Assembly: GCF_056712565.1 (NCBI RefSeq)
Contig: NZ_CM160072.1
DNA length: 64,000 bases
Reading direction: 5' to 3' (one strand)
Below, in pieces: positions 2,450 to 61,604 of this stretch. Made by a program: the position numbers and the translations under genes. The number at the start of each line of letters is the position of its first letter. Within the stretch, counting starts at the first letter, position 1. Under the pieces are notes generated by a model. That model was not told the origin of the DNA. It saw only the letters and a list, made by a program, of their open reading frames with translations, and searched no databases.

Positions 2450-3577
2450 ATGTCGTGCCCGGTTATTGAGCTGACACAACAGCTTATTCGCCGCCCTTCC
2501 CTGAGTCCTGATGACGCAGGATGCCAGGCTTTGTTGATTGAACGTTTGCAGGCGATCGGTTTTACCGTTGAACGCATGGACTTTGCCGATACGCAGAATT
2601 TTTGGGCATGGCGTGGGCAGGGTGAAACGTTAGCCTTTGCCGGGCATACCGACGTGGTGCCGCCTGGCGACGCCGACCGTTGGATCAATCCGCCGTTTGA
2701 ACCAACCATTCGTGACGGCATGTTATTCGGGCGCGGTGCGGCAGATATGAAAGGCTCGCTGGCGGCGATGGTGGTAGCTGCAGAACGTTTTGTCGCACAA
2801 CATCCCAACCATACGGGGCGACTGGCATTTCTGATCACCTCTGATGAAGAAGCCAGTGCACACAATGGTACGGTAAAAGTCGTCGAAGCGTTAATGGCAC
2901 GTAATGAGCGTCTCGATTACTGCCTGGTTGGCGAACCGTCGAGTATCGAAGTGGTAGGTGATGTGGTGAAAAATGGTCGTCGCGGATCGTTAACCTGCAA
3001 CCTTACCATTCATGGCGTTCAGGGGCATGTTGCCTACCCACATCTGGCTGACAATCCGGTACATCGCGCAGCACCTTTCATTAATGAATTAGTGGCTATT
3101 GAGTGGGATCAGGGTAATGAATTCTTCCCGGCGACCAGTATGCAGATTGCCAATATTCAGGCGGGAACGGGCAGTAACAACGTTATTCCAGGTGAACTGT
3201 TTGTGCAGTTTAACTTCCGCTTTAGCACCGAACTGACGGATGAGATGATCAAAGCGCAGGTGCTTGCCCTGCTTGAAAAACATCAACTGCGCTATACGGT
3301 GGATTGGTGGCTTTCCGGGCAGCCATTTTTGACCGCGCGCGGTAAACTGGTGGATGCGGTCGTTAACGCGGTTGAGCACTATAATGAAATTAAACCGCAG
3401 CTACTGACCACAGGCGGAACGTCCGACGGGCGCTTTATTGCCCGCATGGGGGCGCAGGTGGTGGAACTCGGGCCGGTCAATGCCACGATTCATAAAATTA
3501 ATGAATGTGTGAACGCTGCCGACCTGCAGCTACTTGCCCGTATGTATCAACGTATCATGGAACAGCTCGTCGCCTGA
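2450..3577 (+). CDS. dapE: Succinyl-diaminopimelate desuccinylase
   Basis: 375-aa ORF, M20 peptidase family motifs, synteny. Confidence 0.95.
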
Positions 3578-3604
3578 TGAGTGGTTCTGCAAGAGGAAAT
3601 AAGC

Positions 3605-3805
3605 ATGGACTGGCTGGCTAAATATTGGTGGATTCTGGTGATTGTCTTTTTGGTAGGCGTCCTGCTGAACGTGATTAAAGATCTCAAGCGCGTCGACCAT
3701 AAGAAATTTCTCGCCAACAAGCCGGAGCTTCCCCCGCATCGTGATTTCAACGATAAGTGGGACGATGACGACGACTGGCCGAAAAAGGATCAACCGAAGA
3801 AGTAA
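3605..3805 (+). CDS. ypfN: Small membrane protein YpfN (66 aa)
   Basis: ATG 3605 with RBS AGAGGA; TM helix then acidic tail; ORF track start 3581 is an upstream extension. Confidence 0.75.
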
Positions 3806-3813
3806 GCTAAGTG

Positions 3814-3872
3814 GCCGGATAAGGCGTTAACGCCCCGGCCATGATGCCTGATACAGTCTTATCAGGCCTACC
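3814..3872. repeat. REP (repetitive extragenic palindrome) elements
   Basis: GCCGGATAAGGCG... and GCCTGATA...TATCAGGCCTAC palindromic units between ypfN and ypfH. Confidence 0.5.
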
Positions 3873-3881
3873 CGGCTATTA

Positions 3882-4580
3882 TTACATCATTTCAATCACA
3901 TCATCATCGCCAGGCTTACCGCCACTTAGCGCTTCGTCGAAATAATGTTTCGGAATGGTATAACGCAAGTGATCCAGGGCTAATTGCATACTGCGATTGT
4001 CGATCGCATGGCCTAAATCCTCCACGATATCCAGCGTCACATCGCCACCGGCACTGATTAACGCTTCCTGCGCCGCAACCGCATGCGCCAGATCGATAAC
4101 CGGATCTTCACCGCCATGAATCAAGTGAATTGTTGTGGCTGTAGACGCGGTTTCCGGCAGGCTCGCGTAGCGTCCGTTGAAGGCAATGACGCGCGAAGCA
4201 AGGCCCGGTTCGGCTTTAATGCTCTCCAGCGCCATAATCGCGCCTTGTGAGAAACCGATTAGCGCCGTGGCATTAGCCCCTACTCCGCTTTGTTTCTGCC
4301 AGTAGCGCACCGTCTCAATAAACGTCGGCATGATGGCATTCACACGCGCCTGGCGATTATCTTCCGTAATACCCTGCACCGAAAACCACTGACGCCCCGC
4401 CGGATTACCGCTCGGCTCCGCGCCACCGACACTCACCACCAGCGCATCAGGAAACAGCGGCGCAAACCAGCTACCTATTTCCCCCATTGCCACCGGGTTA
4501 TCCCCGACACCGTGGAAAAGCAGTAACAACTGTTGTGCTGGTTTATCCGGGCTTTGAACAACAAAATGGTCATGTTTCAT
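3882..4580 (-). CDS. ypfH: Esterase YpfH (alpha/beta hydrolase)
   Basis: Start at ATG 4580 (MKHDHF...) with RBS AAGGAG 6 nt upstream; ORF track start 4604 is an extension. Confidence 0.85.
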   Translation of the reverse strand: MKHDHFVVQSPDKPAQQLLLLFHGVGDNPVAMGEIGSWFAPLFPDALVVSVGGAEPSGNPAGRQWFSVQGITEDNRQARVNAIMPTFIETVRYWQKQSGVGANATALIGFSQGAIMALESIKAEPGLASRVIAFNGRYASLPETASTATTIHLIHGGEDPVIDLAHAVAAQEALISAGGDVTLDIVEDLGHAIDNRSMQLALDHLRYTIPKHYFDEALSGGKPGDDDVIEMM

Positions 4581-27361: not shown

Positions 27362-27901
27362 ATGAAGAAAGTTTTTCTTTGCGCCATCTTAGCCTCCTTA
27401 AGCTATCCGGCTATCGCCTCATCATTGCAGGATCAACTCTCGGCTGTCGCAGAAGCGGAACAGCAAGGTAAAAATGAAGAGCAAAGGCAGCATGACGAAT
27501 GGGTCGCGGAGCGCAACAGGGAAATCCAGCAAGAGAAGCAACGTCGCGCAAACGCCCAGGCCGCGGCTAATAAAAGAGCGGCAACGGCAGCAGCGAATAA
27601 GAAAGCTCGTCAGGATAAACTGGACGCCGAAGCCACTGCGGACAAAAAACGCGATCAAAGTTATGAAGATGAGCTACGTAGCTTAGAGATTCAGAAACAA
27701 AAACTGGCGCTGGCGAAAGAAGAAGCCCGCGTCAAGCGCGAAAACGAATTTATCGATCAGGAACTGAAGCACAAAGCTGCGCAAACCGATGTGGTGCAAT
27801 CTGAAGCTGACGCAAACAGAAATATGACTGAAGGCGGTCGCGATCTGATGAAAAGCGTGGGTAAAGCAGAAGAGAATAAATCAGATAGCTGGTTTAACTA
27901 A
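27362..27901 (+). CDS. yfgI: Secreted coiled-coil protein YfgI
   Basis: 179 aa, signal peptide, charged coiled-coil. Confidence 0.85.
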   Translation: MKKVFLCAILASLSYPAIASSLQDQLSAVAEAEQQGKNEEQRQHDEWVAERNREIQQEKQRRANAQAAANKRAATAAANKKARQDKLDAEATADKKRDQSYEDELRSLEIQKQKLALAKEEARVKRENEFIDQELKHKAAQTDVVQSEADANRNMTEGGRDLMKSVGKAEENKSDSWFN

Positions 27902-30416: not shown

Positions 30417-30445
30417 CCCGCAAAATATTGCGGGCTTTTTTTTAA
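30417..30445 (+). terminator. Plus-strand rho-independent terminator abutting tailspike stop
   Basis: CCCGCAAAATATTGCGGG followed by CTTTTTTTTT. Confidence 0.4.
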
Positions 30446-33400
30446 CGTTCTTCCAGAGACTGAATCCGCTCTTTTATCTTATCCATTTCTCTGCGCTGCC
30501 ATGCTGCCTCGATATAGAATAAGAGATCAGGTCTGACCCCCCATCTAGATCCTGCTGGCGTTATTTCAACGCGCTCAATGATGTCTTCTATTACCATCAC
30601 TGGATTATCATCCTCATCAACAATGATGCTCCCGTCATTATCAGTCAGCGGCATTTCCCTTTGGCCAGTAATGACGTCATCATATACTGCGGGATAATCG
30701 TCATAGCAAAGAAAGGCATAGCGGCATGTTGTGCTTTCTTCTTCCATGAGTCCGTGAGAAATAAGAACATCACGAAGTTGCTGCGCGATTACACCATGAT
30801 GTATCCTCGCCCCTTCTTCCCCCTTTATAGCGACAGCGTTCAGCCATTTATAAGCGATATACCTGACGTCACCCCAGGCATCCAGCAATGCTTCGTCAGG
30901 AGAGACCGGCTCTGTCTTTAATGTTCCGTCACTGGTAACCACAGGATTGGAGCCAAGATAAACTGTCGAGAACCTGTTTCCCGGACCACCAAGAGCATTT
31001 ACATTATCAAGATAAGGTTTAACATCTCCGTTCTCAAAAAGATGTTCGAGTGCGTTATATACCGCGCGACGTGGAGTACTGCTTCCGGAACCATGCAACG
31101 TTATCATTGCACCATCTGCTGAAGACGTTGTTTCACCTCCGCTAACGATTAATCTCTGAGCGGTAACATCATCAGACGGTACTTTCTTCGCAATAATGGC
31201 GTAATTACCCTCAAGTTTGACTTCCGCGCGAACTTGTCCTGATGTACCTGCATGGACAGTCAGTGACTGGACGGCAACATCATCTGTGAAATCAACGGGT
31301 ACAGGAACCGTCCTCACGCCTGACGTCGACATAAAAGTAGGAAGCGTTCTGTTAGGAGTGGCTCCGTAGACAAAATCCCTTGAAACAAATTCTTCCTGTT
31401 TAATTTTCACCCTGAAACAATACAAATCAGCCGGGTGACCATCGTGAACATAAGGATATTTTCTGTTGTTATCCCCTATGCTCCATGGGTTTAGAAAGTC
31501 TTCCCCACCGAAAATGTAGTACAGCCAGTTGTCTTTGATACAAACTGAACCAACACCAACCGCAGAGTTAACTATTCCGCCCTGATAAATCTGATCAGTA
31601 ACATTAACCCACTCTACATTATCCAGACTCCACTCATTGACGTTAACTCTGGTCATAAATGTTCTTGGATAATTTCCTGCATAACGGTTATCAGGTTCTC
31701 CTCCTTCCCACTCACCAAATGCGCGCTCACTGCCAAAAATAATCAGCTCATCGCCAACTTTGGCAAAAGGAAGGTTTGAGTGATGAACATTATTTGGGAA
31801 GCGAAGAGAATTCCATGATGTACCTAAATCAGAGCTTCTGTGCAATGAACTACCGGGTTGAGTACTTAATGTCCCCCTGGTCGTCAGATACAGAATGCCA
31901 TCATAATATTTTACACATGGCTCAGATGCATTCGCCTCATATTCTGCAGGTATGCGTCTGCGAACAAAGCTACCAGGAGAACCGAAAGCATCAGAGAAAT
32001 AGAGTATCCCAAGCTCGCGTGGACCAATATCACCATTATGGTAGCCAACAGCAAAACTGTTATCGCTAATCGTCGCAAAACTGTGAATCTCAGTAACAGG
32101 AGTGCTTCCGTCAACAAAAGAAGGAATAGTTCCAAGACTGGTTTTTCTCCATGGTGACGAGTGAAATGATGTACCAAAACTCCAGTATCTACCCTCGTTA
32201 TTCTGATCCACATCCTGAGTATTTTGCGTCGTAACTGTAAAAGTATTTTTATCAATAACAGTAGTCACCGTCATATTCCCGGTAACACCTGTAACACCAG
32301 AGTTTGAGAAGTTGACAAAATCACCAGCAAATAATCCGTGATCAGTAATGCGAATATAAGCGACTTGCTGATTTGCTGCTTTCGTTATACCACCATAAAC
32401 GCGAAGGCTGCGACTCATTGGGCGATCCCACAACTCTGCAACCTGCAGTTTATTTCCTCTCACGGTCCGCGTCTCAATTACAGCAAAAAGGCGATTTCTG
32501 ACAACCCCCATACTCATGCAGTGATAGTTAACTGTGGGATAGTTTTCATGTAAATCTGTAAGCCATTCCGGCGTTGTCCAGGTCTTCCCGTCATCTCCTG
32601 AGCGAACCCATGCAACATGGAGGTTATTTACACCATGGCGGTCTCCAGCCATAAAAGGCGCATAGATGACATTGTCATATACAAACGTTTTATCCTGCGT
32701 CCAGGCGTTGTACCACGGTGTATCTGTAATTTTAAATAACTCTCCCTGGATAAAATCTTCAGAAGCATAAAAAAGAGGCTGGCCCGGTATTCTCTCAAAT
32801 AAAAAACGAGCATTTTTAAATCGACTGACATCCGGAAGAGTTGATACTTTAAAAGTAAGCCCTAATCCGTCAATTTTATAACCTGGAGATGAGGCTTCAA
32901 GGCACGCGCTTATTGCAGTGGAATCGTCATTTATACCATCACCAACAGCTCCAAAATCTTTGGGGCTAATAGCATCACGCATTTTATCCTGGAACGTTCG
33001 GTACACAGCCCCAGAACCATACTGAATAAACCAACCAAAACCACCAACAACCCCGGCGATTGCAGCATCGACATAATTACGCATTGAGCGATTATTTACA
33101 GCGTCCTGCTCAAATGATGGATCTGCAAGGTTAGAAATTTTGTTTTGCTTTGCATCGTAATATTTTGCAAGCAAAGATGGTTTCATCAATGCACGTCTGA
33201 ACCACCCAAAACATTGCTGGATCAGCATCGTCAGGTAGTCAAAGGCATCTTCATGCACTTCGGGGAAAAATTTTCCCTGATTGCGAAGGTCTGTCTCCTG
33301 CACTACATCAAGCACACGATCTATCGTAATTCGCCATCCAGTAGCAAGCGGAGACGGAAGAACCACAGAACCGCCACTATAAGTGCCCGCCCCAGTTACC

Positions 33401-33561
33401 GTATAACCGGTATCCAGGACCAATTCTGTTACGTTCCCGTTCAGGTCAGACACCTGAACAACCAGGTCTGATTTTCTGAAAATTCGAAAAGTATACGGAA
33501 ACGATGTCGTAACGCCGTTACCGGTGTATTCGTTGTGGTCAACTTCGGTTGAGACCGTCAT
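30442..33561 (-). CDS. Tailspike protein with Asp-box (BNR) beta-propeller-type central domain
   Basis: 1039 aa; conserved phage tail-fibre N-terminal domain; two SxDxGxTW motifs (SGDDGKTW, SSDLGTSW); RBS GGAG. Confidence 0.8.
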   Translation of the reverse strand: MTVSTEVDHNEYTGNGVTTSFPYTFRIFRKSDLVVQVSDLNGNVTELVLDTGYTVTGAGTYSGGSVVLPSPLATGWRITIDRVLDVVQETDLRNQGKFFPEVHEDAFDYLTMLIQQCFGWFRRALMKPSLLAKYYDAKQNKISNLADPSFEQDAVNNRSMRNYVDAAIAGVVGGFGWFIQYGSGAVYRTFQDKMRDAISPKDFGAVGDGINDDSTAISACLEASSPGYKIDGLGLTFKVSTLPDVSRFKNARFLFERIPGQPLFYASEDFIQGELFKITDTPWYNAWTQDKTFVYDNVIYAPFMAGDRHGVNNLHVAWVRSGDDGKTWTTPEWLTDLHENYPTVNYHCMSMGVVRNRLFAVIETRTVRGNKLQVAELWDRPMSRSLRVYGGITKAANQQVAYIRITDHGLFAGDFVNFSNSGVTGVTGNMTVTTVIDKNTFTVTTQNTQDVDQNNEGRYWSFGTSFHSSPWRKTSLGTIPSFVDGSTPVTEIHSFATISDNSFAVGYHNGDIGPRELGILYFSDAFGSPGSFVRRRIPAEYEANASEPCVKYYDGILYLTTRGTLSTQPGSSLHRSSDLGTSWNSLRFPNNVHHSNLPFAKVGDELIIFGSERAFGEWEGGEPDNRYAGNYPRTFMTRVNVNEWSLDNVEWVNVTDQIYQGGIVNSAVGVGSVCIKDNWLYYIFGGEDFLNPWSIGDNNRKYPYVHDGHPADLYCFRVKIKQEEFVSRDFVYGATPNRTLPTFMSTSGVRTVPVPVDFTDDVAVQSLTVHAGTSGQVRAEVKLEGNYAIIAKKVPSDDVTAQRLIVSGGETTSSADGAMITLHGSGSSTPRRAVYNALEHLFENGDVKPYLDNVNALGGPGNRFSTVYLGSNPVVTSDGTLKTEPVSPDEALLDAWGDVRYIAYKWLNAVAIKGEEGARIHHGVIAQQLRDVLISHGLMEEESTTCRYAFLCYDDYPAVYDDVITGQREMPLTDNDGSIIVDEDDNPVMVIEDIIERVEITPAGSRWGVRPDLLFYIEAAWQRREMDKIKERIQSLEER

Positions 33562-35159: not shown

Positions 35160-35792
35160 ATGAAAACAAATACAACAAGAAAAGCGATGCCATACATTAT
35201 CCCAGAAGCAGATTTCGACAGAAAACTGAACATGTCTGAGAAGAACACTAGTCACACCGAAAGCTACTTAGCGAAAGGTGTGGTTGATTTCGTTCTTCCG
35301 GGATTCACAACACCTTATGGTTATCGCCTTGTAAAATCTTGTAATGGCGATCATTACAGAATGATTACTACCAGCGATACTCCAGAAACGGTGTATGCGG
35401 TTAAGTTAATCTTTCGGGAAGATATCGTCGAAGCTAAAAGAACATGTACGCAGATCATGGTATGGCGTACGCCTAATGTTATTCATGACCGTGCTGTTCA
35501 TGGTTTGCCTCAGATTTTTTTTCAGTTCTTCCTAGAGCAATATGCGATCGTTGTATCTGATGAGCAACAAACAATCGATGGGAGAAGATTCTGGGAAAGA
35601 ATGATTTCTTGGGCTATAAACACCCCGGGATATAATGTATACGTTTCAGATGGCTCTGAAGAAGATAGACCTCTTAGCTTCATGACATCATGGGATGATT
35701 TCTATAGCCAGTGGGCTGATTTCTGTTGGGGCAGTGATAAAGATGTGCATACCCACAGACTACTGGTTATAAGCAAAGATAAACTGCATTAA
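35160..35792 (+). CDS. Hypothetical cytoplasmic protein (210 aa), moron
   Basis: Own operator, RBS GGGAGGA and terminator; Trp-rich C-terminus; no family recognised. Confidence 0.55.
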   Translation: MKTNTTRKAMPYIIPEADFDRKLNMSEKNTSHTESYLAKGVVDFVLPGFTTPYGYRLVKSCNGDHYRMITTSDTPETVYAVKLIFREDIVEAKRTCTQIMVWRTPNVIHDRAVHGLPQIFFQFFLEQYAIVVSDEQQTIDGRRFWERMISWAINTPGYNVYVSDGSEEDRPLSFMTSWDDFYSQWADFCWGSDKDVHTHRLLVISKDKLH

Positions 35793-52183: not shown

Positions 52184-52390
52184 TTACTGACCAAGCAGCG
52201 TTTTACCGCTGGTATTAGCGGTTGATGTGTCGCCCTGAGAACCGGTAAGCAGCGTAGAACTACGACCAGCAGCAGCGCGACGGCGACGTGTTTCTTCGTC
52301 GCGGGCATCAACAACGGCGGCATCCTGCTCCTGTGGTGCTGCCTGAACTTCTGGTGTTGCAGGCACTGATGGTGAGCTACCCATGCACAT
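52184..52390 (-). CDS. Small hypothetical protein (68 aa) upstream of portal
   Basis: ATG 52390 with RBS GGAG; overlapping alternative frame 52171..52410 judged less likely. Confidence 0.3.
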   Translation of the reverse strand: MCMGSSPSVPATPEVQAAPQEQDAAVVDARDEETRRRRAAAGRSSTLLTGSQGDTSTANTSGKTLLGQ

Positions 52391-52458: not shown

Positions 52459-52495
52459 TTGACATTTAACGCGTTAATTATTACCTTTCAGGTAA
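52459..52495. promoter_or_regulatory. TTGACA -35-like hexamer plus operator-like palindrome (52481-52495)
   Basis: TTGACA at 52459-52464; TTACCTTTCAGGTAA at 52481-52495. Confidence 0.4.
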
Positions 52496-52816
52496 CCAAG
52501 AGCTCATTCTGGTTACTAACCTGACTGGCTTGTCGTTAAATTAAACAGGTGGAGTGAGCTTTTATTTTGAGCAGTACGGCGTATGGCACATGCGCCGATA
52601 GCGGTCTGGATACGTTTAAGGGGCACCCTCCCTTGCTCGGGCAAACGAACCAGGTAGCCGGAATGTGCAAGTCGAGCGGTTTTATTCCGCGCACGGGGAT
52701 TCACCATCCCGGCGATTCGGTGTGACGCCTCGGAAGAGACGAGGGTACAACGATGAGAGCATTTATGGAGCCGCGACAAAGTGTGGCGCCTTAACAGGCT
52801 AAGTGCTCTCAGCGTT

Positions 52817-52893
52817 GTGGCATTAGCTCAGTTGGACAGAGCAACCGCCTTCTAAGCGGTTGGTCGCAGGTTCGAATCCTGCATGCCACGCCA
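52817..52893 (+). tRNA. Phage-encoded tRNA-Arg, anticodon UCU
   Basis: Cloverleaf by hand: acceptor GTGGCAT/ATGCCAC, D-arm GCTC/GAGC, anticodon stem ACCGC/GCGGT, loop CTTCTAA, T-arm GCAGG-TTCGAAT-CCTGC, CCA end. Confidence 0.85.
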
Positions 52894-53091
52894 GAATCAC
52901 GCCTAAGGACCGTGATGCCAGAAGTTCCAGGTGCTTGGCGGTGATGGTTTCCCTTGAAGGACTATCACCGCCCTTTTTACAGCAGGACGCCATTGCGATG
53001 ACTTCATGCTGTAAACCAGTACAGCCACGGAAGGCATAACTCATTGCTTCCAGTTCGCCCGGTTCGCCGGGCATTTTTTAAAGGTGAGATT

Positions 53092-53463
53092 ATGAACGAC
53101 CAGCAAATCGAAAAAGAAATCGTTGAGAAAGGCAAAACGGCACCGCGCGTTACGCCAGACCATATCGAAGGCATTATTGCTCAGGAGGCATATTTCACAG
53201 CAGAAGATGGTGCCTTTGGCAAAGCCATAAAAGCGAAACATACTGGCGGAGAGGTAAACTACCAGCCGCACGAATCACTTTCTCTGCTGACGTTCTGCGT
53301 CCTGGTGCTGCGCAACGGCTTCACCGTCACCGGAGAGAGCGCCTGTGCAAGCCCGGAAAACTTTGATGCGGAAATTGGTCGGGAGATTGCCCGGCAGAAT
53401 GCTGTAAACAAAATCTGGATGCTCGAAGGTTACTTGCTGAAGCAGAAGTTAAGCGAGCAATAA
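53092..53463 (+). CDS. Hypothetical protein (123 aa) co-oriented with tRNA; moron
   Basis: ATG 53092 with RBS AAAGGTGAG; plus-strand island in minus-strand operon; family not confidently recognised. Confidence 0.55.
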   Translation: MNDQQIEKEIVEKGKTAPRVTPDHIEGIIAQEAYFTAEDGAFGKAIKAKHTGGEVNYQPHESLSLLTFCVLVLRNGFTVTGESACASPENFDAEIGREIARQNAVNKIWMLEGYLLKQKLSEQ

Positions 53464-53467
53464 CACC

Positions 53468-53479
53468 GTGACATGTCAC
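53468..53479. repeat. Perfect 12-bp palindrome GTGACATGTCAC (copy 2 of 3)
   Basis: Immediately before the bidirectional terminator. Confidence 0.5.
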
Positions 53480-53483
53480 AAAC

Positions 53484-53510
53484 AGCCAGCCGATGAGCTG
53501 GCTTTGTTTT
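53484..53510. terminator. Rho-independent (probably bidirectional) terminator
   Basis: AGCCAGC-cgatga-GCTGGCT then TTGTTTT. Confidence 0.6.
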
Positions 53511-53553: not shown

Positions 53554-55029
53554 TTAAGCATAAGGGTCATAATCCGTTATGGCCCTTCCCTGCTGGCTTT
53601 GCTGTCCAGGTATATTTATGCGTTTCGAGACCGGGAAAGCAAACGTCAGCAGTAGCGCATCGCCTTTACCCGGCGAACGCCCAAGCCGCTCCTTGATATC
53701 TTCCTTCGGTTCGATAACGATTTTACCGTCCACACGAACTTTGTACTCTGCCGCCGACAGGTCGTCTGCAGTTTCCTGGTCATCCAGCATGCCGCCGAGC
53801 CTCAGCCATGTCTTGCATGAGTTGAACATCTCCCCACGCTTGTTGAGCATCTGCGGGTCAGTAGACGCGCCACCGAACGGAACAAGTTGCCATGTACGTC
53901 CCCAGCCATCACCGATTGACTTCAAACCGGTTCCGTAACCGAAGTCGATGAACACCGCGTCAGCCTGATACTGGTCTTCAAAGTCAGCGATACGCTTCGC
54001 CATAATCAGATCGTCGGTAGTCTTGTTGCCAGTCCACAGCACCTTACTGTGTAGCCCCTGCCGCAGGTATATCACAGCGTCATCAACGCCGGAGTATGCC
54101 GGGTCAACGCCGATTATCACCGGAGCATGTGCAACCTGCGCAGCGGTTACCACCCGTTTCATTGCCTCGTCAGTAAGACCGGTAGGGATAAACTGCAATT
54201 CAGATGCATCAGGGAATATGCCACGCACACGGATTTTAACGAAGTCGCTGTCTTCCCCGTAGTCATCAACCCATTTCTGCAACTGCTGTTTGTTGGTACC
54301 TTCCACCGTCCGACTGTCAATCTGCGCAGTTTTCCAGCGGTGTTTATACTTGCGGAAACATTCACGGAAACGTCCGGTATTACGTGTAGGGTTTCCGAAC
54401 GCCACCCAAATAATCTCAGTGTCTTCGTCCGTAAGCGCACCCTCGGCAACTTCCCACACCAGATCCGCAATGTTCGACGCTTCATCAAACACCACGATGA
54501 TGCGTTTGCGCTCGTTGTGTAGTCCGGCGAATGCCTCGGTGTTGTGCTCAGACCAGGGTATTGCGTCAGCCCGCCACCGCTTGTCGTGCCCTAGGTCATT
54601 GCTGTACATCGCGGTAGCGGTACAGGTAAACCAGTCTTTCGTGATAGCAAGGTTCGACCACTTGATAATTTCCGGCCAGGTCTTCGTTCGTAGCTGGTTG
54701 TCGGTGTTGGCGGTCACCACGACCTTACAATCCTCGCAAGTGGACATGCCCCAGTTGATCAGCATTGAGATGAATGCGGATTTACCAATACCGTGACCAG
54801 AAGCGCGTGCCAGCATAAGCGGCTGATAGCGCGTCTCTGGATTCTGCAGGTGATCACGTATCTCTCGGAACGCATCAGCCTGCCACTGACGTGGGCCGGT
54901 GGCATGTGCCAGTTCAGTCCCCTCTTCCCCCCATGGGAACGCATAGAGGGCATAGCCAAGCGGATCGTGAGTGAACCCTGCAATATCCTCGATTAACTGC
55001 TCTTCAGGAGATAACGCTGTATCTGTCAC
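53554..55029 (-). CDS. Terminase large subunit
   Basis: 491 aa; Walker A-like ASGHGIGKS; C-terminal nuclease-like region; follows small subunit with overlap. Confidence 0.85.
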   Translation of the reverse strand: MTDTALSPEEQLIEDIAGFTHDPLGYALYAFPWGEEGTELAHATGPRQWQADAFREIRDHLQNPETRYQPLMLARASGHGIGKSAFISMLINWGMSTCEDCKVVVTANTDNQLRTKTWPEIIKWSNLAITKDWFTCTATAMYSNDLGHDKRWRADAIPWSEHNTEAFAGLHNERKRIIVVFDEASNIADLVWEVAEGALTDEDTEIIWVAFGNPTRNTGRFRECFRKYKHRWKTAQIDSRTVEGTNKQQLQKWVDDYGEDSDFVKIRVRGIFPDASELQFIPTGLTDEAMKRVVTAAQVAHAPVIIGVDPAYSGVDDAVIYLRQGLHSKVLWTGNKTTDDLIMAKRIADFEDQYQADAVFIDFGYGTGLKSIGDGWGRTWQLVPFGGASTDPQMLNKRGEMFNSCKTWLRLGGMLDDQETADDLSAAEYKVRVDGKIVIEPKEDIKERLGRSPGKGDALLLTFAFPVSKRINIPGQQSQQGRAITDYDPYA

Positions 55030-55622
55030 TGATTGCCATCCTGACGTTCTTTCAGTCTCTTCCTGGCTGCCGCTATGCGATCAGCAATTGTCACATTCAC
55101 ATTAACATCCAGGCGTTCTTTGAATGCGTTGACGTCGACGTGCTTACCAATCAGTTCGAGGTTCTTCACCTTGTCAGGCCATTTAATTTTTTTGAGGATT
55201 GTCTCTATCGAATCCTCGTTCATGTTCATGATGGTCGATGACAGATCAAAGCCACTAAGCGTAGTGCGCCAGATTTTCGGCCACTCGCGGATTGGCTTAA
55301 GGCTCCCATCGTCGTTGAGGATGTCGATCACGTCCATCTGGTCGATCTCCACCAGGCGCATGAGAACGTAATCAGCACTGACGCGCATTCGTTTGTTGCG
55401 CTCCTCCATCAACTCGGCAATCCGTTTTTGAATGCGTTCATCGCGCATCATGACACTGGCTTTAACTGCCGCTGTATTTGGGGAGAATCCTGCGTTAATC
55501 GCTGCCTGAGTCTGGTTTTCAGGCGTTTTGATGTATGACTGGCAATAAGCCTCCTGCATTGCTGTTAGTGGCTTAAATTGCGTTGATTTGCGTTTATAGG
55601 TTTTAGGTTCAGCAGGCATCAT
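55026..55622 (-). CDS. Terminase small subunit
   Basis: ATG 55622/55619 preferred; track start 55700 is a TTG extension over a terminator and operator. Confidence 0.55.
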   Translation of the reverse strand: MMPAEPKTYKRKSTQFKPLTAMQEAYCQSYIKTPENQTQAAINAGFSPNTAAVKASVMMRDERIQKRIAELMEERNKRMRVSADYVLMRLVEIDQMDVIDILNDDGSLKPIREWPKIWRTTLSGFDLSSTIMNMNEDSIETILKKIKWPDKVKNLELIGKHVDVNAFKERLDVNVNVTIADRIAAARKRLKERQDGNQ

Positions 55623-55639
55623 AACCACCGTGGTAATAG

Positions 55640-55654
55640 TTACCGTTGTGGTAA
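55640..55654. promoter_or_regulatory. Operator-like palindrome TTACC-N5-GGTAA upstream of packaging operon
   Basis: TTACCGTTGTGGTAA, 18 bp upstream of small-terminase ATG. Confidence 0.45.
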
Positions 55655-55663
55655 TAGTACCAT

Positions 55664-55691
55664 GCAAAATAAAGCCGCCATAGTTGGCGGC
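55664..55691 (-). terminator. Terminator separating early/middle operon from packaging operon
   Basis: Minus strand GCCGCCA-acta-TGGCGGC then TTTATTTTG. Confidence 0.5.
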
Positions 55692-55696
55692 AGTAT

Positions 55697-55909
55697 TCAA
55701 AGTCCATCAAATTCATCGTAAAAACTCTCGTCAAGATACCCTTCCCATTTACCGCGAATGAAAATTACATCCTCGCCGCAAGGGTGCTGACTGTCGATAA
55801 CTATATCCCTCCTGGCGCAACCATACTTATGCATGAGAAATTTAACCTCTTTCGGAAAATTTGCTGAGTTATCTCTCATATCTTCAAGGTCGTAGCGTAT
55901 TTTTGGCAT
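55697..55909 (-). CDS. Hypothetical protein (70 aa)
   Basis: ATG 55909 with RBS AAGGTG; track start 55930 is a GTG inside the palindrome. Confidence 0.35.
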   Translation of the reverse strand: MPKIRYDLEDMRDNSANFPKEVKFLMHKYGCARRDIVIDSQHPCGEDVIFIRGKWEGYLDESFYDEFDGL

Positions 55910-60634: not shown

Positions 60635-60865
60635 TCATGAGTAGAAGAAGTATGCCAGTTCTGCTTTTGAGCGCAGCCATTGTCTTGTTTTACAGGCTTT
60701 AAAAAGCCCATTCATCAATACTTTACCTGGCATTTTTCGCTTACCTGTTAAGTGAGTCTGGATATAGTGACTCGTCGTTCCGGCTTCCTGTGCGAAGGCT
60801 TCACGCTCATCCGGAGTAAGTGCAAGCCAGTGCTTTTTGAAATCGAAATGTCCGTTATCGCTCAT
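60635..60865 (-). CDS. Cro-like HTH regulator (76 aa)
   Basis: Divergent from cI-like gene across the operator cluster; HTH LTPDEREAFAQEAGTTSHYIQ. Confidence 0.55.
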   Translation of the reverse strand: MSDNGHFDFKKHWLALTPDEREAFAQEAGTTSHYIQTHLTGKRKMPGKVLMNGLFKACKTRQWLRSKAELAYFFYS

Positions 60866-60901
60866 AGCTATTGCCTGATATTTATTTCAGATAATAAATA
60901 T

Positions 60902-60964
60902 TCACCCATAAGGTAACAAAAATCAAGGATAGTTACCTATGAGGTGCATTTACCTGTTGGGTAA
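60902..60964. promoter_or_regulatory. OR-like tripartite operator region between cro-like and cI-like genes
   Basis: TCACCCATAAGGTAA (60902), TTACCTATGAGGTGC (60933), TTACCTGTTGGGTAA (60950). Confidence 0.5.
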
Positions 60965-61019: not shown

Positions 61020-61604
61020 ATGAAAAGTATCCAGGACGTCCGCAGGCAAAATCTCAACGACTTGATCGACCGTGAATTCAATGGTGTTCAGACGCGGATG
61101 GCAGAAAAACTTGGAACTCAGGCAAATCTGGTAAACCGCTGGGCTCTTGGCAAGAAGGTTATCGGCGACCAGGTTGCGCGAAAAATTGAAGCTGCCGCCA
61201 ATAAACCCCGTAACTGGCTTGATATCGATCGCTCGCTTTCTCAGGAAGGTTTTCAGCCTGTCGGCCCAAGCGACATTGGTCAGCTGGCGGCTCACAACCT
61301 GGAACGCTGGATGAGCGAAAGCCGCGACCTTTCAACACAGGGAAAACTTCACCGCGCATCCGGCGTCGCCCAGGTGACAATCAGCCGCCTGTTAAACAAT
61401 GAGGTCAGCGTTTCCATTTCCACCCTGGAGAATGTTGCATCCGCATTCGGGCGTCACGGCTATGAATTACTGATTCACCCGCACGACCCTGCGACTATCA
61501 ACTATGACCGCTCGCGCTACGCATTGTTACCCGAAACAGAGAAGGCAAAGATCGAAAGTTACATTGAATTTGTCATCAGCCAGAACGAAAAAAACAAACA
61601 ATAA
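61020..61604 (+). CDS. CI-like repressor, HTH type, no recognisable LexA-type autocleavage domain
   Basis: 194 aa, two HTH-like segments, no Ala-Gly/Ser-Lys S24 motifs; followed by terminator. Confidence 0.65.
   Translation: MKSIQDVRRQNLNDLIDREFNGVQTRMAEKLGTQANLVNRWALGKKVIGDQVARKIEAAANKPRNWLDIDRSLSQEGFQPVGPSDIGQLAAHNLERWMSESRDLSTQGKLHRASGVAQVTISRLLNNEVSVSISTLENVASAFGRHGYELLIHPHDPATINYDRSRYALLPETEKAKIESYIEFVISQNEKNKQ

Follow-up and report, generated by a model that had tools for sequence, protein, structure and literature searches.

The 64,000-nucleotide stretch of contig NZ_CM160072.1 (assembly GCF_056712565.1) analysed here, hereafter the window, contains a prophage that spans about 28 kb to the right end of the window. 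Between its terminase and gp3 genes lies a 1.16-kb stretch that is read on the plus strand. We consider it likely that this island is a conserved, repressor-controlled accessory unit of the genus Uetakevirus, consisting of a folded RNA, a tRNA and a variable cargo gene. The leader between the promoter and the tRNA (about 320-360 nucleotides, nt), which was overlooked in a first-pass annotation of the region, is a conserved structured RNA, and the cargo gene encodes a member of a characterised family of proteins directed against the cyclic oligonucleotide-based antiphage signalling system (CBASS). The island comprises the following features:

52459..52487, plus strand, putative sigma-70-type promoter read from the sequence (-35 TTGACA at 52459-52464, 17-nt spacer, -10 TACCTT at 52482-52487)
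52481..52495, no strand assigned, putative repressor operator TTACCTTTCAGGTAA, a perfect palindrome overlapping the -10
52576..52746, plus strand, core of the structured non-coding RNA (alignment of 37 copies; covariance model score 141 bits here)
52747..52816, plus strand, 3' domain of the non-coding RNA (closing helix 52748-61/52804-16)
52817..52893, plus strand, tRNA-Arg, anticodon UCU, CCA encoded (ARAGORN, Rfam tRNA, and alignments with argU and phage relatives)
52896..52916, plus strand, conserved hairpin ATCACG...CGTGAT just 3' of the tRNA, part of the predicted fold
52937..52979, plus strand, intrinsic terminator 1, a 14-bp stem (hairpin 52937-52972) followed by a T run (terminator scan and fold)
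52980..53056, plus strand, conserved inter-terminator segment containing ATTGCTTCCAGT at 53043-54, kept in epsilon15
53057..53079, plus strand, intrinsic terminator 2, GCCCGG-TTCG-CCGGGC (53057-53072) followed by T6 (terminator scan)
53092..53463, plus strand, cargo gene, 123-aa Acb4-family (PF13876) protein, predicted cyclic-dinucleotide sponge
53484..53510, no strand assigned, terminator hairpin between the cargo open reading frame (ORF) and the convergent terminase gene (53484-53503 in the plus-strand terminator scan)

A conserved structured RNA between promoter and tRNA

The core of the RNA is 170 nt long and contains a near-invariant 19-nt single-stranded block, GGUAGCCGGAAUGUGCAAG. Its structure, which was written from the window sequence, consists of five helices and two proposed pseudoknots, all on the plus strand:

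52577-82/52592-97, helix P1
52606-09/52650-53, helix P2
52671-73/52711-13, three-pair junction helix J
52696-99/52707-10, helix P4
52728-32/52740-44, helix P5
52586-91/52663-68, proposed pseudoknot
52702-05/52719-22, proposed pseudoknot

This structure was compared with a MAFFT alignment of 37 distinct, non-redundant cores that had not been fitted to it. Standard pairs occupy 96.2% of the cells, versus 29-42% when the partners are slid by one to three columns, and changes on both sides occur at 13 pairs (82 cells). For four of five measures none of 500 shuffles reached the observed value, while 14 of 500 reached the count of further pair types. Compensatory changes back P1, P2, P4 and P5, and also the pseudoknot 52702-05/52719-22, where phages of the cdtI group have UAACC/GGUUU in place of UCACC/GGUGU. 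The pseudoknot 52586-91/52663-68 varies so little that covariation cannot test it. Individual pairs are G-U or U-G in 11, 15, 16 and 35 of the 37 sequences; as the opposite strand would have C-A mismatches at these frequent pairs, it is the plus strand that folds. The core is followed by a 3' domain of approximately 73-81 nt, whose closing helix ends at the first base of the tRNA. Across the 37 copies, the cognate duplexes of this helix have a mean of -21.3 kcal/mol compared with -11.2 kcal/mol for non-cognate ones, and compensatory sequence classes are visible.

The region 52490-52820 has no match in Rfam 15 even at E<=10, and a search of the 1.6-kb region at E<=1 returned only the tRNA and a sub-threshold antisense match on the same bases. 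Related loci, searched at Rfam gathering thresholds, yielded only tRNAs and unrelated small RNAs (sRNAs) located elsewhere. A small protein-coding gene was rejected as an explanation for the conserved block, as the densely annotated P1 genome has no gene there and the substitutions in the helices are compensatory. No prior description of the RNA was found in the literature searched, an incomplete search that is no proof of novelty. We tentatively suggest, with somewhat less than even confidence, that 52576-52816 belongs to a class of large structured phage RNAs not described before, with a role in the first minutes of infection or induction, for which control of polymerase or terminators, host take-over and the countering of RNA- or tRNA-directed defence are candidate functions.

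Distribution and genomic context of the RNA

The sequence 52576-52816 shares 75-83% identity with unannotated DNA of unrelated phages. In P1, P7, D6, SJ46 and RCS47 the RNA is located 15 nt 3' of trnI and upstream of ban, and in the lambdoid phages cdtI, mEp460, mEp390, 2H10, Stx2c and some Stx2a phages it always lies just 3' of cI on the same strand. It was also identified in Klebsiella phage SopranoGao and in a phage whose deposited host is Stenotrophomonas. When IMG/VR was scanned for the 19-mer GGTAGCCGGAATGTGCAAG, which is near-invariant, at least 120 loci were retrieved. Among the matches listed, 59 copies are non-redundant, of which about 22 sit in the Uetakevirus island, about 19 are found 95-155 nt 3' of a CI-type repressor gene, and three belong to P1-like phages, where, according to the annotated P1 record, the element is part of the C1-controlled ban operon. 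Both lambdoid loci inspected have a PL-like promoter and operators ahead of the RNA. The RNA is widespread in temperate phages of the Enterobacterales, and all of its readable contexts are repressor-controlled early operons. Searches with a covariance model derived from the alignment detect a single copy in each phage, with no second copy in the early-right region of cdtI.

At a coverage of at least 80%, the core is present in 1810 of 5426 complete Escherichia coli genomes, including 553 places on plasmids, and the complete tRNA-containing unit is present in 502 of the 5426. No RefSeq feature is annotated under the core among the matches listed. Among genomes that represent species, those with the exact 19-mer come from Citrobacter, Klebsiella, Kosakonia, Phytobacter, Escherichia, Pseudescherichia, Buttiauxella and Candidatus Erwinia. 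The 19-mer is also present in two short contigs from metagenome assemblies whose bins are assigned to Bacillota and Lachnospiraceae; these probably represent mis-binned enterobacterial phage DNA.

Association with tRNAs and tRNA-like cassettes

Among the matches listed, the core is followed by a tRNA-Arg(UCU) in 8 of the 59 copies, in both lambdoid and Uetakevirus settings, while the P1-like copies have tRNA-Ile2 just upstream of the RNA. Many copies lack a tRNA; here, a different cassette (GTGGTGAATGCGC...GCCGGAGATCAGCACCGGCCACCACAAC) begins at the same junction. These tRNA-like cassettes, which end in CACCACAAC or CACCACACCA, are found in cdtI (extract 2745-2856), in the Salmonella prophage ST64B and in others. 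Each of four folded variants has an acceptor stem, a D-like arm, an expanded middle and a T-like arm, and two of the four contain canonical GGTTCGAWTCC loops; neither ARAGORN nor Rfam calls the cassettes. The hairpin ATCACG...CGTGAT recurs 3' of the tRNA or the tRNA-like cassette in many related loci. Cleavage by RNase P at the junction would free the RNA upstream of it as a separate molecule. The tRNA cluster of phage T4 (species 1 and 2 RNAs) and MALAT1-mascRNA provide examples of stable RNAs that arise through tRNA-type processing. As in these systems, the island has a non-coding RNA that abuts a tRNA or tRNA-like structure and whose end would be set by RNase P; it shares no sequence relationship with them, and its processing is proposed by analogy.

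The closest published observation that we found comes from ST64B, which contains an 815-bp gap 3' of cI with a PL-like promoter and, as in the relatives of the island, this kind of closing helix (CAACAGATAAGAGTT / AACTCTTATCGTTG) and tRNA-like cassette (GTGGTGAATGCGG...CACCACAAC; 27460-27660, minus strand), but lacks the 170-nt core and differs in its 5' domain. The STnc1310 transcript of ST64B is reported to be highly expressed under inducing stresses (Owen et al., 2020; PMC7067206) and, judging from its described position rather than from confirmed published coordinates, appears to be the transcript of this gap. STnc1310 was rejected as the same RNA, as the features that ST64B has in common with the island family are limited to the 3' helix and the cassette.

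Prophage identity and position of the island

The island region is 95% identical to Escherichia phage phiV10 over the whole 1163 bp, and by sequence the prophage is an epsilon15/phiV10-like podophage of the genus Uetakevirus rather than the lambdoid phage assumed in the first-pass annotation. The island does lie on the strand opposite to the packaging and head genes, as had been noted: the terminase and portal genes are on the minus strand and the tRNA and ORF on the plus strand. The neighbouring minus-strand genes, which also include a scaffold or protease gene and the major capsid gene, are:

55026-55700, minus strand, small terminase gene
53554-55029, minus strand, large terminase gene (TerL)
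52184-52390, minus strand, gp3 homologue, 68 aa
50490-52169, minus strand, portal gene

An island in the same position and orientation, between TerL and gp3/portal, is present in phiV10, the O157 typing phages 9 and 10, ZX5, PAS61, HEMP4 and phiv142-3, in the Salmonella phages SPN1S, SPN9TCW and SPC32H/N, and in Enterobacter phage Tyrion and Klebsiella relatives including ST512-KPC3phi13.3; the epsilon15 slot also matches, and 39 IMG/VR loci have a convergent TerL downstream of the island. Because the same island recurs across members of the genus, the placement of a tRNA between terminase and portal, previously described as unusual, is the norm in Uetakevirus. The phiV10 genome shares the order TerL, terminator, gp49/66-like gene (PhiV10p03), tRNA-Arg, gp3 and portal. 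In the records of phiV10, O157 typing phages 9 and 10, ZX5 and the SPN1S group, neither the structured RNA nor the operator nor the relationship of the cargo to Acb4 is annotated. In epsilon15, a deletion (extract 2760-2900) begins within the core of the RNA and reaches the right arm of terminator 1; the tRNA and the greater part of the core are thereby lost, whereas the promoter, terminator 2 and the Acb4-like gene are retained.

Promoter, operator and terminators

The -10 of the putative island promoter, which epsilon15 keeps with the same -35, spacing and -10, overlaps the palindrome TTACCTTTCAGGTAA. Its motif TTACCT-N3-AGGTAA occurs 17 times in the window at up to two mismatches versus 1.16 expected occurrences, a number reached by none of 100 shuffles, and 15 of the 17 sites are within the prophage. 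One cluster (60902-60964) lies in the divergent control region between a cro-like gene and a repressor gene (61020-61604), and the site homologous to the island palindrome carries a 'repressor' annotation in the epsilon15 record. Since a putative phage operator overlaps its -10, the island promoter is expected to be repressed in the lysogen and to fire early. The TTGACA element, upstream operator and downstream terminator that had been ascribed to the tRNA are all present, the likely operator being TTACCTTTCAGGTAA. The spacer palindrome TTAACGCGTTAA was rejected as an operator, with five matches at up to two mismatches compared with 2.6 expected and no counterpart in epsilon15. Operator-like palindromes are scattered through the prophage (33666, 34046, 35086, 52481, 58557, 58619, 60565, 60741-60964, 61662 and 61724), and as they also precede the plus-strand accessory genes at 33.6-35.8 kb, they suggest that one repressor controls many separate promoters.

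Terminator 2 ends one base before the ribosome-binding region of the cargo ORF, a position that is conserved in Uetakevirus-type loci. The hairpin at 53484-53510 is annotated in the phiV10 record as a terminator for the terminase strand. The simple terminator finder used misses long-stem terminators, and we therefore make no claim from it about the frequency of terminators after the RNA. The P1 'dicF-like region' (extract 300-362) contains GCTTCCAGTTTGCCC, which is related to the inter-terminator segment. The 12-mer at 53043-54 equals the RyhB seed, as does AUUGCUUCCAGU in this segment, which is followed by a terminator, a layout as in Hfq-type sRNAs, with scores that are not significant. Accordingly, a RyhB-like sRNA at 53026-53080 was rejected (16.5 bits versus a gathering threshold of 55, E=0.9), as was a DicF-like sRNA in the region of terminator 1 (52926-52973; compared with the DicF 3' hairpin, 13 bits versus 48, E=2).

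The tRNA-Arg(UCU) and codon usage of the prophage

ARAGORN identifies a single tRNA in the whole 64 kb, tRNA-Arg (tct), which scores 73.3 bits against the Rfam tRNA model (RF00005; gathering threshold 29), in agreement with the phage tRNA-Arg(UCU) of the first-pass annotation. It is also distinct from host argU, as stated there: it has the same base as argU, taken from an E. coli chromosome, at 64 of 77 positions (83%), and most of the 13 differences are paired changes within the acceptor stem and the anticodon stem. The anticodon loop CUUCUAA, the D arm including A20, C35, the T arm and the terminal GCCA are unchanged, A20 and C35 being the identity elements for arginyl-tRNA synthetase in E. 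coli. In contrast to argU and other phage-borne tRNA-Arg(UCU), the island tRNA appears to be fused at its 5' end to a structured RNA behind a repressor-controlled promoter. The tRNA is already annotated in several Uetakevirus records and is mentioned in the ZX5 paper. In the GenBank and RefSeq records of phiV10 (extract 3434-3685) it is unannotated, and a hypothetical coding sequence, PhiV10p04, which is probably spurious, runs antisense across it.

Codons were counted in non-overlapping long ORFs of the prophage and in 23 flanking host ORFs. AGA and AGG account for 115 of 633 arginine codons in the prophage (18.2%; 11.1 per 1000 codons), compared with 3.8% (2.2 per 1000) in the host ORFs. The expected enrichment of these codons over the host, approximately fivefold, thus holds for the prophage as a whole; it does not extend to the head genes, the codons being clustered in the tailspike gene (30442-33561; 25 AGA/AGG codons) and the accessory genes at 33.6-35.8 kb. 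The plus-strand accessory ORF 35160-35792 (209 codons) has nine AGA among 13 arginine codons and represents the strongest local demand for the tRNA. It is plausible that the tRNA supplements AGA/AGG decoding for horizontally acquired, AT-rich genes.

An Acb4-family protein in a variable cargo slot

The 123-aa protein, previously regarded as an orphan without known family, matches Pfam PF13876 (N4 Gp49 / Sf6 gene 66 family; E=2.2e-34, residues 20-120, full model covered) and has more than 8000 homologues, which are named 'Gp49 family protein'. PF13876 was identified in 2024 as the Acb4 family of tetrameric sponges that sequester 3'3'-cyclic GMP-AMP (cGAMP) and related CBASS signals, and all eight Acb4 homologues assayed bound 3'3'-cGAMP (PMC11722364). 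The sequence alone matches the Acb4 of Bacillus phage SPO1 (PDB 9e4w) with E=0.0026, and a profile of 32 homologues searched against PDB sequences has 9e4w as its sole significant match (E=6.5e-6). Furthermore, an AlphaFold2 model (predicted local distance difference test 84.8) has 9e4w chains as all of its top 13 Foldseek matches in the PDB (probability 0.99-1.00, target-normalised template modelling score 0.55-0.67). Sequence and modelled fold thus place the protein in the Acb4 anti-CBASS family, with ligand binding predicted.

The two proteins share the Pfam family and fold, but identity is only about 21%, and SPO1 Acb4 has about 95 aa compared with 123 aa here, the island protein having an N-terminal helix and a hypervariable segment (residues 38-62) in addition. 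Ligand contacts described for SPO1 Acb4 are K36, F48, E49, V56, Y57, F62, N63, I66, T70 and K81 (PMC11722364); in the pairwise alignment F48 (F77 here), F62 (F91) and I66 (I95) are kept, and K36 and K81 fall outside the aligned block. Residues 38-62 (53205-53277) vary strongly in length and sequence among otherwise near-identical Acb4-like proteins of related prophages. The segment directly precedes the conserved LLTFCV strand and could serve to adjust which ligand is bound or to escape a counter-measure of the host.

In 39 distinct Uetakevirus-type loci, recognised by their convergent downstream terminase gene, the slot holds an Acb4-like gene in 16, a Tad2-like gene in six and genes for unrelated small proteins in the rest. 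This alternation points to a variable cargo position that favours signal-sponge genes. A Klebsiella example of the cargo matches PF11195 (Thoeris anti-defence 2 domain; E=2e-25), Tad2 corresponding to DUF2829 (bioRxiv paper), and an NCBIfam search of the remaining cargo genes of the relatives returned nothing useful. In Klebsiella phage ST512-KPC3phi13.3 (extract 3697-4218) the Tad2-like domain is confined to residues 77-173 of the cargo protein; residues 1-74 match the N-terminal part of phrog_9467, and the C-terminal part of that PHROG matches the window's Acb4-like protein, a hint that modules may have been shuffled between sponge families. With respect to the features of a moron, a terminator is present and the cargo varies among relatives, and no promoter of its own is visible. 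Because a promoter scan detected no promoter-like site between terminator 1 and the ORF, the Acb4-like gene seems to depend on the island promoter and on read-through.

Proposed function of the island and alternative explanations

In the model that we favour, the repressor bound to the operator would silence the island in the lysogen, and the promoter would fire when repression is absent, at infection or induction. The transcript would start with the folded non-coding RNA of about 320 nt, comprising the 170-nt pseudoknotted core and the hairpin-closed 3' domain. The tRNA-Arg(UCU) would begin at the next base, so that an RNase P cut at its 5' end would release the non-coding RNA, and the two intrinsic terminators and the variable cargo gene would follow. 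The tRNA most likely supplements AGA/AGG decoding, mainly for the tailspike and accessory genes, and the Acb4-family cargo, as a predicted tetrameric sponge expressed by read-through of both terminators, would bind cGAMP-type CBASS signals and thereby block abortive-infection immunity. Our best guess for the non-coding RNA is a stable early RNA, its ends set by tRNA or tRNA-like processing, that may act on transcription read-through or on host or defence factors.

Several points weigh against this model. Promoter use, RNase P processing and the early timing of the island are inferences from sequence, and the -10 TACCTT is weak, matching at only three of six positions, which is why a consensus promoter scan did not call the island promoter. 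The major capsid, scaffold and portal genes contain zero or one AGA/AGG codon each, so that the tRNA is unneeded for bulk virion or head synthesis. The loss by deletion of the tRNA and most of the core in epsilon15, which keeps the promoter, terminator 2 and the Acb4-like gene, makes the tRNA dispensable and both elements inessential for the phage and, probably, for cargo expression. Five ligand contacts of SPO1 Acb4 are changed in the island protein (E49 to T, V56 to C, Y57 to A, N63 to D and T70 to I). Finally, two strong terminators separate the promoter from the Acb4 gene, which may be poorly expressed or served by an unseen promoter.

The terminators bear directly on an alternative that we consider unlikely, in which the RNA is a cis-acting processive antiterminator, similar in function to HK022 put, for terminators 1 and 2 and for lambdoid tL-type terminators. 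The HK022 put RNA has about 70 nt and two stem-loops and is present in two copies, after PL and PR (PMC9378689). Like putL and putR, the island RNA is a structured nascent RNA just 3' of a repressor-controlled early promoter (at a distance of 45-80 nt), in phages without N and with terminators between it and the downstream genes, both in the window and in cdtI. An antiterminator would also account for a cargo ORF without a visible promoter. An N-like protein downstream of the RNA was rejected: cdtI has no annotated N gene, and PHROG searches of ten downstream ORFs in lambdoid relatives returned no N-like family. However, the island RNA differs from put in its 170-nt core with five helices and pseudoknots and in its single copy per phage, with none on the PR side. 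It shows no similarity to the HK022 put region, and homology was rejected, as the covariance model finds nothing in NC_002166 24000-30000, where putL presumably lies (the record has no putL annotation), and no second copy in any phage. Moreover, a distance of 2.3 kb separates the P1 copy from Pban and a terminator-like hairpin precedes it, epsilon15 retains terminator 2 and the cargo gene although its core is not intact, and a canonical boxA 3' of one lambdoid copy suggests that a conventional Nus-dependent system operates alongside.

The view of the first-pass annotation, a plain tRNA-plus-moron unit that serves rare codons of the late genes, with an unrelated passenger and an ordinary leader, we regard as quite improbable. 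It agrees with the codon enrichment of the prophage and with a tRNA that is 83% identical to argU and has an intact anticodon loop and identity elements. It does not account for a leader that is 75-83% identical in unrelated phages and shows compensatory helix changes, nor for an Acb4-family passenger that is replaced by a Tad2-family gene in relatives, and the head genes without AGA/AGG and an epsilon15 without the tRNA also speak against it.

More doubtful still is that the tRNA, perhaps together with the cassettes and the core, acts in anti-defence, as a replacement or decoy for host tRNAs cut by anticodon nucleases. In T5-like phages, phage tRNAs that overcome tRNA-cleaving defences are established. 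An adjoining cargo slot with known anti-defence sponge families, the apparently early expression of the unit, the re-coded acceptor and anticodon stems around a kept anticodon loop, and the non-canonical tRNA-like RNAs in the same position in relatives would all be compatible with such a role. Yet codon enrichment offers a simpler explanation, no nuclease of a defence system in these hosts is known to us to attack tRNA-Arg(UCU), and a loop-cleaving nuclease would cut the phage tRNA too, as its anticodon loop is identical to that of argU.

That the element matters as DNA or in the late minus-strand transcript, as a recombination or mosaic junction or an RNase III site, is highly improbable despite its location at module boundaries of mosaic phages and an RNase III site annotated nearby on the late strand of epsilon15: that annotation covers epsilon15-specific sequence and not the core, the orientation always matches local early transcription and the tRNA, and an element acting on the minus strand was rejected on account of the abundant G-U pairs.

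Among the possible functions of the RNA itself, we rank a cis-acting antiterminator first and a trans-acting early RNA for host take-over or counter-defence, which fits the neighbouring sponge genes, second; a DNA-level or minus-strand role comes third and is unlikely.

Implications

As first stated, the finding is real but ordinary: a known tRNA of a known genus, with a cargo from a characterised anti-CBASS family. Within the accessory unit proposed here, the cargo slot, in which Acb4-family, Tad2-family and other small genes alternate, and which is situated amid the late genes and preceded by a promoter under operator control, is a compact place to seek new anti-defence genes in Uetakevirus prophages. 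Most worth pursuing is the conserved pseudoknotted RNA, which one in three complete E. coli genomes contains, in some cases on P1-type plasmid prophages, and which its abundance in clinical E. coli makes easy to test. If it controls early transcription or disarms a host system, it would bear on the early left operon of lambdoid phages that lack N, and would add an RNA component to phage counter-defence.

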